Shown here one piece after another: positions 8,376-41,023 of a DNA stretch of 44,101 nucleotides. The notes below the pieces were generated by a model. That model did not search any database and was not told the origin of the DNA. It was given only the letters and a program-made list of their open reading frames with translations. The DNA lies in the sequence record OZ035805.1, one strand, 5' to 3'. The DNA is from Kagunavirus BCH953P1. The first letter of the stretch is position 1. Each line of letters begins with the position of its first letter. The position numbers were made by a program, and so were the translations under genes.

Positions 8376-8990
8376 ATGGCTAAGACTAAAACAGAGATGT
8401 TTACCCTTATCGGTGCGAATCTTCCGGATAACACCGCCGGAGCTATTACACCTGCGAAGCTACGCGAAGTAATGACCCAGATGGCGGATTCGCCTATTTA
8501 CGCCACTCCCGGTGTTAAAGAGGTTGAAGTTCTCCGCGCTGCGTCGACAGTAACACAAGCGCCTACCGCAGTAGATACAGCATTGCAGGTATCGTTCGGC
8601 TCTGCTCAGGGAAGCGCATCTGACCCGGTAATGATTAATGCTGCAGGGCTTGTTACGTTCAACACCGCAGGTAACTATGCTGTTCGCATCAAGTTACAGG
8701 CTGGGCGCACAGGGGCCAGCGGCACATCCATCCTTTTATCGCGCATTCTTCTGAACGGTTCTCAGTACGGGTCACCCGCAGCTACTAAACTGGTAAGCGC
8801 CGATATTACAATCCCGATTGAGTCTCGCGTAGTTATTAACCCGACCGCAGGCCAGACGTTTGCCGTTCAGATTATGCGGGATAGCGCCGGGAGTGACTTT
8901 GGCGGCGTATATCCGCAAGCGGCTACTGTAACTGCATGGGGTACAGCGCCTTCTGCGCTACTGGTTATCTCGAGACTGGAGGCCGCGTAA
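8376..8990 (+). CDS. hypothetical structural protein
   Basis: 204 aa ORF tightly packed in structural operon. Confidence 0.5.
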   Translation: MAKTKTEMFTLIGANLPDNTAGAITPAKLREVMTQMADSPIYATPGVKEVEVLRAASTVTQAPTAVDTALQVSFGSAQGSASDPVMINAAGLVTFNTAGNYAVRIKLQAGRTGASGTSILLSRILLNGSQYGSPAATKLVSADITIPIESRVVINPTAGQTFAVQIMRDSAGSDFGGVYPQAATVTAWGTAPSALLVISRLEAA

Positions 8991-38159: not shown

Positions 38160-38421
38160 CAGCTACACCGTTACCGTTGATTTTGAGGGGCTGGAGTTGC
38201 CCCTCCCCAACAACTACCGATATGTCACGCGCGACCGTAACGGGTTTATCCAGGGGTGGAGGAACAAACCGACAGATACTGAGTTCGGGATGTCGGGCGG
38301 CGAAGAGTTGCCGATTACTTTCGGGCATCAGAGTAGCAACGAAGAGCTTAAAACTGTGATTCGTAAGTATCGCCGCCGCGGTAACACTGGGCTTATAGCA
38401 ATAACAGGTGCTGTTGAATAG
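38149..38421 (+). CDS. hypothetical protein
   Basis: 90 aa from first ATG (track ORF starts with TTG at 38143). Confidence 0.5.
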   Translation: MNFNSYTVTVDFEGLELPLPNNYRYVTRDRNGFIQGWRNKPTDTEFGMSGGEELPITFGHQSSNEELKTVIRKYRRRGNTGLIAITGAVE

Positions 38422-38439
38422 ACGAGAGGAGAGACAGAG

Positions 38440-38658
38440 ATGTTCCTGGAATGTAAATCCTATGATGGATATTGGGCGCTGACTAAAAATGACTTATACC
38501 ACCTAAAAGAGGACGGCGACGAGAGCCGCTGCTACGTAATAGACGACAACGGCACTGAACTTGATGTCTATTACACCGGTTATGGCCGATGGGCGCTATC
38601 CGCTGACGATGACTTTGTGTTCGAAGAATATAACGGAGAGGAATCAGAAGATGAGTAA
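38440..38658 (+). CDS. hypothetical acidic protein
   Basis: 72 aa; strong SD GAGAGGAGAGA. Confidence 0.5.
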   Translation: MFLECKSYDGYWALTKNDLYHLKEDGDESRCYVIDDNGTELDVYYTGYGRWALSADDDFVFEEYNGEESEDE

Positions 38659-39160
38659 CAAAAACGAAGTATTCGAGTACCTGATTGACCAGTTACGACA
38701 GCAGGTAACTAACAACCCGCACAAGCAACAGTGCGAAGACCTGGCGCATGAGGTGCAGTCGCTTAAGAATCAGTTACGTGATGCGTCGGCGCTGGTGGCT
38801 GAGTTGCAGGAAACAATAAAACTAATGAATGAGGACTTCGACAGTGTAACCAACCGCGGCGGCCCACTGCCTAAAGGGAAGAGCTACGTAGTAGGCGAAC
38901 ACGGACCAGAGCAATCCGGTTGCCGTAAGGAAGATACTCAGGAATGCGAGCACTCTTGGATTATTATGCCTGGGTTGTTTCTCAGCGAAGGCAATACGAA
39001 CAACGTTCCTGGTAGTGAGCTTTGCTCTAAATGTGGTAAACGTGAGTGGGACGACAAGGAATATAAACCGAAAAACGATACACAGGAGTGCGAGCATGAA
39101 TGGGAATATTATTACCCCGACGGTAGGCGTTGTACCAAATGCGGGGTGATAAACTTATGA
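38651..39160 (+). CDS. coiled-coil protein with two zinc-ribbon-like repeats
   Basis: 169 aa; repeats DTQECEHSW-x17-CSKCG and DTQECEHEW-x11-CTKCG. Confidence 0.5.
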   Translation: MSNKNEVFEYLIDQLRQQVTNNPHKQQCEDLAHEVQSLKNQLRDASALVAELQETIKLMNEDFDSVTNRGGPLPKGKSYVVGEHGPEQSGCRKEDTQECEHSWIIMPGLFLSEGNTNNVPGSELCSKCGKREWDDKEYKPKNDTQECEHEWEYYYPDGRRCTKCGVINL

Positions 39161-39301
39161 CCAGCATCTTATTTATCTGGGTGAGTTCAAAACACAGGAA
39201 CGCGCAGCAATCGCTAATCGGTTATTTAATTACTGGAAATCGCTGGGGTACGATGATATTCCAACGAAACCGCAGAGACGACAATACATCTGGAGACATA
39301 A

Positions 39302-39742
39302 ATGACTACAATCGCGTTTGACGGAAAGACAATGGCCTGCGACACCCGTGTTGTGTGCGGAAGTAACTGCTACAACACTGACACAAAGATATACGAGAAT
39401 GATTTTGCTGTTATTGGGGTGGCTGGTGATGCTGGAGTAGGGGCTATGCTTATCGATTGCTCTGGTATTCTTCTGGCAAAGCACTATGACTTCGATTTCG
39501 AAGCTCTGGTGTTCGTGAAAGACACAGAAAAGGTGTACAAAGTTGCGTTTTATAAATCATGGGATTGCGCACTAAGTTCGGTTATCCCTGTTGCCGATGT
39601 GCGCGCTGCCGTAGGGTCCGGCGCCCCTTATGCACTGGCGGCTATGTATTTGGGTGAAACCGCAACACGTGCGATTACTGTAGCCGCGCAATTCGACACT
39701 AACACTGGGGGCAAGGTTATTACCAAACAACTATTAAGATAA
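39302..39742 (+). CDS. HslV/proteasome-beta-like Ntn-hydrolase family protein (putative)
   Basis: 146 aa; N-terminus MTTIAFDG (Thr directly after Met) and GSGAPYALAAM signature resembling HslV MTTIV... and GSGGPYAQAA; GGAG SD. Confidence 0.55.
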   Translation: MTTIAFDGKTMACDTRVVCGSNCYNTDTKIYENDFAVIGVAGDAGVGAMLIDCSGILLAKHYDFDFEALVFVKDTEKVYKVAFYKSWDCALSSVIPVADVRAAVGSGAPYALAAMYLGETATRAITVAAQFDTNTGGKVITKQLLR

Positions 39743-39801
39743 TTCCTACCCGTGCTATCCTCCAGTTACTGCATACTTAATACGCACCTGGAGGATTCAT
39801 C

Positions 39802-40110
39802 TTGGATAAATTTACTGAAACAGTGACAGGCTGGCTTCTCGCTGCCGCGCTAGCCGGAGGGGTAATCGGACTACGACAACATAAGTCCGTTATTTCTGGC
39901 CCTATCGACGGATTCTGCTTTATCGCAACGGGCTTCACTTGCGCCGTATTTGGAGCACCTCTCGCAGCTCAATGGTTCGGTATCACGGGCGACCGTGAAA
40001 TCGCGGGCCTGGGCTTCATTATCGCCGTTCTCTGGATGCCTATCTATTCCCGTCTCTCCGGTATCGTCGCCGGAGAATACATCGCACGTCGAGGAGGCCC
40101 AGATGAATGA
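39802..40110 (+). CDS. holin (putative)
   Basis: 102 aa with multiple hydrophobic TM segments and charged C-terminus; immediately upstream of lysozyme cassette. Confidence 0.65.
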   Translation: MDKFTETVTGWLLAAALAGGVIGLRQHKSVISGPIDGFCFIATGFTCAVFGAPLAAQWFGITGDREIAGLGFIIAVLWMPIYSRLSGIVAGEYIARRGGPDE

Positions 40111-40375
40111 GTTATTCTGGTTCGGTGGTATGCTGGCAATCGGAGGCACATCGCTGTTTAATGTGTACCATCCGAGTATTGACGACGGGCTATTTGGCCG
40201 GGTGCTCTATATCCTGACTGCTATCGTCTGCGCTGCCGGATGTATCCACCTGTTACAGGGCTGCATGTCGCCAACGCTGCCTGAGACATTAATCACATTA
40301 GTTGCGCTGCGCCAGATTCGCCAGGCGTGGCTGGCATACGGAGGACATAAGCGTGTCTCGAAACATTTCAGATAA
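40103..40375 (+). CDS. membrane protein (second holin/antiholin-like)
   Basis: 90 aa, two TM segments; ATGAATGA overlap with holin stop; ends at lysozyme start. Confidence 0.5.
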   Translation: MNELFWFGGMLAIGGTSLFNVYHPSIDDGLFGRVLYILTAIVCAAGCIHLLQGCMSPTLPETLITLVALRQIRQAWLAYGGHKRVSKHFR

Positions 40376-40841
40376 TGGATTGCATTTCACCGCCGCGTTT
40401 GAGGGGTTCCGCGGAACTGCGTACCGCGCTACGCCGAACGAGAAGTACCTGACCATAGGCTACGGTCACTACGGACCGGACGTAACACCTGGCAAGACCA
40501 TCACGCCAGGTCAGGGCCTCCTGTTACTGAATCGCGATATGGCTAAGGCCGTAGCTGCGGTTGATGCGGCGGCGCACCATTCACTGACGCAGGCGCAGTT
40601 TGATGCTGTGTGCGACCTGGTCTATAACGCGGGTGCTGGTGTGATTGCCGCTACTACCGGCACGGGCAAGGCGCTGCGTTCTGGAGATGTTACGACACTG
40701 CGGGCCAAGCTGGCGCTGTTCATCAACCAGAACGGCAAACCGTTACTCGGCCTGCGTCGCCGTACCGCCGGTCGTCTGGCTCTGTTCGACGGCAAACCAT
40801 GGCAAGAGGCAGAGGCTATCGGGCGCGCGGTGAAAGGTTGA
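40353..40841 (+). CDS. endolysin, phage lysozyme (GH24-like)
   Basis: GTG start with GGAGGA SD; motifs FEGFRGTAY, TIGYGH and DLVYNAG typical of T4/lambda-type lysozymes. Confidence 0.8.
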   Translation: MSRNISDNGLHFTAAFEGFRGTAYRATPNEKYLTIGYGHYGPDVTPGKTITPGQGLLLLNRDMAKAVAAVDAAAHHSLTQAQFDAVCDLVYNAGAGVIAATTGTGKALRSGDVTTLRAKLALFINQNGKPLLGLRRRTAGRLALFDGKPWQEAEAIGRAVKG

Positions 40842-40906
40842 CACCTGAGACTAATCCGACGATACTTAAATCACCTCCTGCTCCATCCCTCTACTCTCCA
40901 GTTTTA

Positions 40907-40940
40907 TCCCGGCCCTGACCCAGCCGGGATTTTTTTTTTA
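40907..40940 (+). terminator. rho-independent terminator
   Basis: stem TCCCGGC / GCCGGGA with 9-nt loop followed by T10. Confidence 0.8.
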
Positions 40941-40961
40941 TCTATTTTCTGCAATGACTAG

Positions 40962-40990
40962 TTGACTATTACTCTCACACCAATTATATT
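40962..40990 (+). promoter_or_regulatory. sigma70-type promoter TTGACT-17-TATATT
   Basis: hexamers at 40962-40967 and 40985-40990, 33 nt upstream of ORF 41024. Confidence 0.55.
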
Positions 40991-41023
40991 TACTCCATCG
41001 ACAACGAGAACGGAGTAGAGAAG

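Follow-up and report, generated by a model that had tools for sequence, protein, structure and literature searches.

The window analysed here is the whole 44,101-nucleotide (nt) stretch of sequence record OZ035805.1, from the Guernseyvirinae siphophage Kagunavirus BCH953P1 (genus Kagunavirus). The gene at 39302..39742 on the + strand (ATG start, stop codon included) encodes a protein of 146 amino acids (aa), which is likely to be a PPH-type, proteasome-like threonine peptidase that does without canonical docking to HslU, to judge from its match to phrog_1040, from profile alignment to HslV by hhalign, and from a Foldseek search with an AlphaFold2 model. The PPH family was described in 2021 by Fuchs et al. 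(PMC8665760). A first-pass annotation, made from the letters of the sequence, had proposed that this gene encodes an HslV/proteasome-like N-terminal nucleophile (Ntn) hydrolase. The open reading frame (ORF) that it described is present, as are the N terminus MTTIAFDG and the motifs AVIGVAGDAG (residues 36 to 45) and GSGAPYALAAM (residues 105 to 115) on which it relied. The HslV strings that it quoted also match Escherichia coli K-12 HslV (NC_000913), which reads MTTIVSV..., KVIAGFAGG, and AIGSGGPYAQAA and which, at 176 aa, is longer than the 146-aa phage protein, as had been claimed.

The relationship to the proteasome superfamily was detected once diverse representatives were included in the profile. 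With the 146-aa protein alone as the query, searches of Pfam, NCBIfam, and the PDB (phmmer) returned only sub-threshold matches: Pfam PF00227 (Proteasome) had an E value of 0.17 and 11.9 bits (gathering cutoff, 22.4), the HslV equivalog model TIGR03692 had 12.3 bits (cutoff, 157.75), NCBIfam 20S_bact_beta had an E value of 0.007, and HslV in the PDB had an E value of 0.16. A shallow profile built from relatives of ≥79% identity brought no improvement over the single sequence. The query does match phrog_1040, labeled “peptidase HslV family,” with an E value of 3e-35, and when a small profile was searched exhaustively, 3,677 cluster representatives (50% identity clusters, E ≤ 1e-3) were obtained, mostly 135 to 155 aa long and aligned from residue 1. 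The alignment used for further comparisons (A2) holds 116 diverse relatives, mostly 30 to 41% identical to the query, and 66 of them individually match Pfam Proteasome at an E value of ≤0.01 (best, 3e-11).

When the A2 family profile was compared with the single sequence of E. coli HslV in hhalign, residues 1 to 138 aligned to residues 1 to 166 with a probability of 97.5% and an E value of 6.4e-12. Against PDB sequences, the same family profile matched 208 proteasome, HslV, or BPH chains at an E value of ≤0.01, the best being Thermotoga maritima HslV (8e-13), CodW (5e-12), human beta5 (8e-11), and BPH (5e-10). A chance match of motifs is ruled out by such highly significant profile comparisons, that with HslV (E = 6.4e-12) in particular. 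At the level of sequence, the resemblance to HslV is greater than chance and is visible through profile methods only.

An AlphaFold2 model of the monomer, built on A2, has a predicted local distance difference test score (pLDDT) of 90.3 and a predicted TM score (pTM) of 0.86. In a Foldseek search of the PDB with this model, every match from rank 1 to rank 48 is a 20S proteasome subunit (beta in most cases), an HslV, or a connectase, and the top matches are 3h6f_E (1.7e-6) and Staphylococcus aureus HslV 6kui_A (1.9e-6; TMq 0.71). The proteasome-beta/Ntn-hydrolase fold of the 146-aa protein, with its conserved beta-sheet core and pairs of helices on the flanks, is thus established, and the fold named in the first-pass annotation is borne out by the hhalign probability, the model confidence, and the composition of the Foldseek list alike. 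The annotation had asked for just such a structure and profile comparison, which finds the fold present and the catalytic residues in register.

The order of elements in the model is six strands, helix H1, four strands, helices H3 and H4, and a final strand (139 to 143), after which the protein ends. In the region of HslV H1 and H2, the model has the single helix 46 to 52, and the mean pLDDT falls to 62 for the block from residue 51 to residue 60. A low-confidence loop (residues 53 to 65; 39458..39496, +) stands in place of the end of HslV H1 and the entire helix H2, and hhalign places here a deletion of about 14 residues relative to HslV 60 to 80 that matches the absent H2. Helices H3 and H4 are strongly conserved in the family. 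Residues 83 to 91 (AFYKSWDCA; 39548..39574, +) form an insertion that lengthens a beta-hairpin in the model (strands 77 to 85 and 90 to 96); except for columns 85 and 86, its columns are gaps in 128 to 136 of 137 distant relatives.

Conservation of the catalytic residues was counted over these 137 relatives, mostly of <50% mutual identity. T2, D14, K29, G42, G105-S106-G107, and D132 are conserved at 90 to 100%. The hhalign alignment places T2, D14, K29, G39 to G42, and GSG on HslV T1, D17, K33, G45 to G48, and GSG, with 84 to 100% conservation among the relatives. Thr2 (codon 39305..39307, +; T in 133, S in 2) is the predicted N-terminal nucleophile after removal of Met1, corresponding to proteasome and HslV Thr1, and a Met-Thr start is found in 133/137. 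Asp14 (39341..39343, +; 135/137) and Lys29 (39386..39388, +; all 137) are the equivalents of proteasome/HslV Asp17 and Lys33. The segment Gly39-Val-Ala-Gly42 (39416..39427, +) aligns with the HslV oxyanion-hole segment G45-F-A-G48 (proteasome Gly47), and its first position is G in 115 and A in 19 relatives, its last G in 136.

Farther along, Gly105-Ser106-Gly107 (39614..39622, +) aligns with the HslV GSG; both glycines are invariant, and the middle position is S in 125 relatives and T in 9. We take Ser106 to be the counterpart of proteasome Ser129 and HslV Ser124. Asp132-x-x-Thr135 (39695..39706, +), followed by Gly-Gly, has D in 133 relatives, T/S/C in 94/26/17, and G136 in 124, and presumably corresponds to the Thr1-stabilizing Asp166-x-x-Ser169-Gly motif of 20S beta subunits, which it resembles; E. 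coli HslV has a Cys at the position of D132. Among viral copies from IMG/VR, the Thr-Asp-Lys triad is kept in 80 of 80, irrespective of genomic context. The proposal that a threonine directly following the initiator Met is accompanied by Asp, Lys, and GSG residues in register with HslV is thus confirmed by the alignment and extends to the whole family. Since the catalytic set is conserved, a functional enzyme is favored over a decayed homologue, and PPH is probably a working enzyme, its activity being predicted from these residues.

That conservation of the full Thr/Asp/Lys/Gly/Ser set also argues against a catalytically dead structural protein, one half of an alternative that we regard as very improbable; the other half is a connectase-like ligase or transpeptidase. 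A connectase (8wkd_A) is among the fold matches (E = 2.8e-3), and the paper describing the PPH family stresses non-proteolytic chemistry in the proteasome-like superfamily (PMC8665760). Connectase is marked by the loss of H1 and H2 and by two helices, inserted between S3 and S4, that cover the active site (PMC8665760). Neither feature is seen in the PPH model, in which H1 is retained and the N-terminal strands, the expected place of the S3-S4 insertion, include no helix. With the weak Foldseek match added, a connectase-type enzyme was rejected.

According to PMC8665760, PPH proteins have about 140 residues, belong to group I alongside HslV and BPH, and lack both a propeptide and the C-terminal S12/H5. 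Together with RPC, they are the sole clades without H2 among proteasome-like homologues, and they are placed as radiating from the BPH cluster. They occur in Caudovirales and in bacteria, where for the most part phage genes flank them (PMC8665760). Membership of the 146-aa protein is set by its match to this description, every listed feature of which it shows; the assignment is one by description. In the published CLANS map, the reference PPH sequence is WP_042125023.1/KEGG OC.1434257.

In HslV, the apical helices H1 and H2 form the pocket for the C-terminal tail of HslU, whose residues are Phe54, Phe57, Ala79/Lys80, and Gln114 (PMC6429459). HslV Phe54 aligns to PPH Ala48 and Phe57 to Ile51, and the helix that bears Ala79/Lys80, H2, is absent. 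An HslV orthologue is ruled out by the TIGR03692 score (12.3 versus 157.75 bits), by the missing H2, and by the lack of an annotated hslU partner in the related phage Bas73. The first-pass annotation had suggested a partnership with HslU or ClpX-type unfoldases of the host. A functional analogue of HslV might indeed form rings that dock host HslU (or a ClpX-type unfoldase) and serve as a phage-directed, ATP-dependent protease on host or phage proteins. HslV is, by a small margin, the top-scoring characterized family in the profile search, the MTTI- start without a propeptide is the same as that of E. coli HslV, and the hosts (E. coli and Salmonella) carry the HslU gene beside hslV.

However, the pocket helix H2 is deleted, Phe54 is replaced by Ala48, and the score against the HslV equivalog model is far below the cutoff. 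The scores of 20S beta5 and BPH are nearly equal to that of HslV, and PPH is listed for Actinobacteria, for which HslV is not (PMC8665760, Table 1). We consider an HslV analogue of this kind unlikely, and the suggested partnership with host HslU is weakened accordingly, without being abolished. The reading of PPH as free of HslU dependence is preferred because H2 is missing. One point weighs against it: H1 is kept with the hydrophobic I51 at the HslV Phe57 position, so that HslU or a different unfoldase of the host might still be contacted in a non-canonical way. Literature searches found no experimental work on phage HslV- or proteasome-like proteins or on PPH function. The annotation of the relative Bas73 lists no ATPase of the Clp/HslU type (within the window itself, only some of the proteins were scanned one by one), and none is found among the 12 recurrent annotated neighbor clusters of 80 viral loci.

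A mechanism can be proposed on the model of the well-established one of the proteasome and HslV, given the residues that are conserved. PPH would be synthesized without a propeptide, and Met1 would be cleaved off by the methionine aminopeptidase of the host, so that the freed alpha-amine and hydroxyl of Thr2 could serve as the N-terminal nucleophile. Lys29 and Asp14 would complete the triad, the Gly39/Gly42 segment would provide the oxyanion hole, and Ser106, Asp132, and Thr135 would hold the nucleophile in position. Activity probably arises only upon self-assembly into a ring via the conserved H3 and H4 helices, because isolated proteasome subunits are inactive (PMC8665760). Without the apical H2 and the C-terminal elements, canonical docking to host HslU would not take place, and PPH may act as an ATPase-independent peptidase or as a protein-processing enzyme of narrow specificity.

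The first-pass annotation regarded such a protein as outside the standard phage modules, a view that is contradicted by the existence of phrog_1040, by the 3,677 clusters, by the earlier description of PPH (PMC8665760), and by the 305 phage records in which tblastn finds the gene. These are mostly Salmonella Jerseyvirus (~63% identity) and Kagunavirus, and many already annotate it as “peptidase HslV family” or “ATP-dependent protease.” With the distant member P0140 as the query, copies are found in phages of Klebsiella, Erwinia, Rhizobium, and Erythrobacter, jumbo phages included, and PPH is spread over sipho-, myo-, and jumbo phages. IMG/VR holds 406 confirmed PPH matches, and 40 viral structures in BFVD have the PPH fold at an E value of ≤1e-3. 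The PPH family is therefore neither new nor rare, and the annotation already stands on near-identical GenBank genes. The labels “ATP-dependent protease” and “HslV family” in GenBank are over-specific; for the window, “PPH-type proteasome-like Thr hydrolase” fits, whereas “ATP-dependent protease” and “HslV” do not.

The best BFVD matches (A0A1W6DWU9, A0A5B9NBU4, A0A6G5YGZ5, and A0A2I7R6C7) are 263 to 279 aa long, roughly double the size of PPH, and 277 positions make up the phrog_1040 profile. Because of these lengths, we suppose that some phage relatives bear a C-terminal extension, possibly of the RPC type of PMC8665760.

Bacterial genomes were surveyed in part, with the pattern MTTIA[FWY]DG only, a survey that did not reach Pseudoalteromonas or Mesorhizobium. 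The gammaproteobacterial chromosomal copies (Yersinia, Pantoea, Morganella, and Rhodanobacter) lie in prophages, flanked by genes for TerL, portal, major capsid protein (MCP), and neck proteins. About 20 Acetobacteraceae genomes (Roseomonas, Falsiroseomonas, Muricoccus, and others; loci L088-L109, L114, and L122) have a chromosomal PPH copy of ~133 to 158 aa, near which none of the 12 annotated phage neighbor clusters is present. The genes beside these copies are poorly conserved and give no functional clue; by eye, they resemble pyrB and dihydroorotase genes, in several of the genomes, and Bug-type binding-protein genes. PPH cases outside a phage context were described for Pseudoalteromonas and Mesorhizobium (PMC8665760), and the Acetobacteraceae copies may be a further “domesticated” lineage besides these. 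Three further loci, in assemblies of unrelated bacteria, carry a PPH that is 63 to 88% identical to the gene in the window: L085 (a Bacillota metagenome-assembled genome), L086 (Taishania pollutisoli scaffold22), and L087 (Novosphingobium silvae). L086 also has endolysin, TerL, and portal genes of the viral-locus clusters. All three look like mis-binned or contaminating Guernseyvirinae contigs, not genuine prophages.

The genomic context of PPH was surveyed in 80 IMG/VR loci, which form 47 groups at 70% PPH identity; neighboring ORFs were clustered, and the representatives were annotated with PHROGs. About 11 of the 47 groups (neck-context loci L017, L036, L037, L040, L041, L048, L050, L055, L056, L063-L065, L067, L069, and L080) share the order portal, scaffold, major head protein, Ad1 adaptor (phrog_477) or phrog_14539, PPH, Neck1 (phrog_169) or phrog_14605, and tail terminator. 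The PPH start there lies ≤4 nt from the stop of the upstream gene, and this overlap or abutment in many distant phages suggests translational coupling. In about 10 other groups (pre-terminase loci L019-L025, L033, L058, L059, L062, and L066-L078), PPH precedes the genes for TerL, portal (phrog_145), and head morphogenesis (phrog_241) by 0.1 to 1.7 kb. Prophage loci L111, L116, L113, and L117 have a neck or pre-terminase arrangement, and in 6 groups, Guernseyvirinae among them, PPH stands beside an endolysin gene.

Because PPH in many distant phages has the head-tail adaptor gene on one side and neck genes on the other, or shortly precedes the gene for the large terminase, our preferred guess, which is a tentative one held at low confidence, is that it processes or turns over some protein, of the phage or of the host, with a part in virion assembly. 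The window carries a head-neck module of the same PHROG families (TerL 2/38319, portal 145, head morphogenesis 241, scaffold 206, Ad1 477, Neck1 169, and terminator 179), which hints at a link between PPH and virion assembly. One form of this idea, a morphogenesis-linked protease that trims or clears a virion or assembly protein (scaffold, MuF/gp7-like, or adaptor) in SPP1-like modules lacking a canonical prohead protease, can draw on both arrangements, on the shared head module, and on the lack of an annotated prohead protease in the relative Bas73. Scaffold-using phages such as P22 and SPP1, however, are not known to need a protease, and we take the low family numbers of these PHROGs as a sign of large, common families. 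The counts were made without a control set, so that the co-occurrence may reflect a base rate or vertical descent, and the head-tail junction and the pre-terminase region are classic sites for morons. Such a protease is a doubtful proposition.

Three observations tell against a role in assembly more generally. Common moron insertion sites, shared descent, or a very common type of head module could equally possibly produce the association with morphogenesis genes. About 20 of the 47 groups have none of the 12 annotated neighbor clusters. Guernseyvirinae have the gene in a set of small, function-unassigned genes, far from the structural ones.

Another alternative is a host-takeover or counter-defense protease, an accessory enzyme that would degrade a specific host factor (such as a defense or stress protein); this would explain its mobile and variable position in the genome. 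The position of PPH varies among phages, its context follows the PPH phylogeny only in part, and it is present across sipho-, myo-, and jumbo phages. In the window, the gene belongs to a cluster of function-unassigned small genes that runs rightward from a divergent region beside the helicase-primase gene. On the other hand, the Acetobacteraceae chromosomal copies without phage neighbor clusters suggest a function beyond infection. We hold this role to be a minority possibility and rank it about level with one in assembly or late infection, each well short of probable. The literature yielded nothing usable on Jerseyvirus virion proteomics, and the paper on the transcriptome of Kagunavirus K1B4 makes no mention of the PPH gene.

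Going beyond the assembly-linked guess, PPH could be an unfoldase-independent peptidase coupled to SPP1-type head-neck assembly, with scaffold clearance or portal-, adaptor-, or MuF-associated trimming as its task, a speculation to which we give little credence. If it were true, PPH would be a previously unrecognized class of phage morphogenetic protease, and one late function would have been given different places: after Ad1, upstream of the terminase, or ahead of the lysis genes. In the head module of the window, the gene that immediately follows the one for the Ad1 head-tail adaptor encodes a 204-aa phrog_3614 protein of unassigned function (8376-8990, +). Other phages that share this head module have PPH or phrog_14605 in the slot.

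The immediate setting of the gene differs in part from that first described. The 2.6-kb region in which it lies (38400-41000) matches Kagunavirus BCH953P1 at 99.8% identity. The holin gene is indeed downstream, but the upstream Cys-rich ORF (38654-39160, phrog_6094), termed a zinc-ribbon paralog in the first-pass annotation, is not directly adjacent. Between them lies the 3' remnant of a phrog_9632 gene (39153..39305, +; 50 codons; E = 5e-25). Its frame has a stop at 39150 and no start codon thereafter, and the phrog_6094 ORF abuts this remnant. The apparent 141-nt gap upstream of PPH is therefore a coding remnant, not an intergenic region. In phage Bas73, the phrog_9632 gene is intact (97 aa) and shares with the remnant the C terminus ...IPTKPQRRQYIWRHK*, which suggests that a local insertion or deletion cut the gene short upstream of PPH. 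The TGA of the remnant (39303-39305) overlaps the PPH start codon (ATGA). Because of this overlap, the GGAG Shine-Dalgarno (SD) sequence claimed for the 146-aa ORF, which is present at 39292..39295 (+), 6 nt before the ATG, as read from the sequence, lies inside the remnant.

Downstream of PPH are a holin gene (39802-40110, phrog_2359), a second holin gene that overlaps it (40103-40375, phrog_2508), and an endolysin gene ending at 40841. A 9-bp inverted repeat, ATCCTCCAG/CTGGAGGAT (39757..39796, +; dG -18.4 kcal/mol, z -3.9), is situated between the stop codon of PPH and the TTG of the holin gene at 39802. The 3' arm of this hairpin contains the holin SD sequence GGAGGA, so the hairpin may sequester it and exert transcriptional or translational control over the holin. 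The hairpin is invariant in Kagunavirus, which makes support from covariation impossible. The corresponding spot in Jerseyvirus is taken by a different hairpin, which is a canonical intrinsic terminator with a T-run (AATCTCCGAAG-loop-CTTTCGGAGATT, then TTTTTTATT) directly before the holin GTG (L011 5474-5510). A scan of the window for consensus promoters and terminators gave nothing convincing near the PPH gene.

Because the hairpin or terminator separates PPH from the holin, PPH lies outside the lysis cassette and closes the upstream operon, as the final gene of the rightward small-gene operon in this phage. The association with lysis that the first-pass annotation implied is thus not upheld. 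A component of the lysis cassette was rejected in view of this boundary and of the morphogenesis-operon contexts in other phages.

The PPH family is known from bioinformatics alone. Since relatives occur in tractable coliphages and Salmonella phages, including Bas73 of the BASEL collection, and since these are close relatives in easily handled phages, this clade is a practical place to begin experimental work on a proteasome-like enzyme of a virus, which would be the first of its kind.

Compared with known systems, the protein shares with 20S proteasome beta subunits (PF00227; beta5 and the Mycobacterium and Rhodococcus beta subunits) the fold, the catalytic triad, and a motif of the Asp166-x-x-Ser169-Gly type. 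The usual propeptide, H2, and the C-terminal H5 of those subunits are all missing in PPH, which is about 60 residues shorter, and no alpha-subunit partner is annotated in Bas73. HslV (ClpQ; TIGR03692; PDB 1m4y, 1e94, and 1g3i) has the same fold and N-terminal Thr mechanism and, in E. coli, the same MTTI start. However, HslV, a dodecamer of two hexameric rings, has 176 aa rather than 146, its last ~10 residues are without a counterpart in the alignment, and the Cys-x-x-Thr-Asn of the E. coli protein contrasts with Asp-x-x-Thr-Gly-Gly in PPH. Helix H2, which makes up half of the pocket for the HslU C-tail, is absent in PPH, and hslV and hslU are adjacent in E. coli, whereas no hslU is adjacent to PPH.

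BPH, the beta-proteobacterial proteasome homologue (PDB 5ovs, 5ovt, and 5ovu), a tetradecamer, is also a member of group I without a known unfoldase partner, and it has a similar GSGxPYAL motif and a profile E value of 5e-10. It forms a double-ring barrel (PMC8665760). PPH differs from BPH, which is ~200 aa long, possesses H2 in addition to H1 as well as a long acidic pore loop, and is not listed for phages in Table 1 of PMC8665760. With the described PPH family, by comparison, the 146-aa protein shares the length of about 140 residues, the Met-Thr start without a propeptide, the equivalents of Thr1, Asp17, Lys33, and Gly47, the single helix at the H1/H2 site, and the lack of a C-terminal S12/H5 or extra domain. 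Its relatives have the same distribution, which covers tailed phages and proteobacterial prophages. The sole difference of this clade is the nine-residue hairpin insertion at residues 83 to 91, which is absent in nearly all distant representatives.

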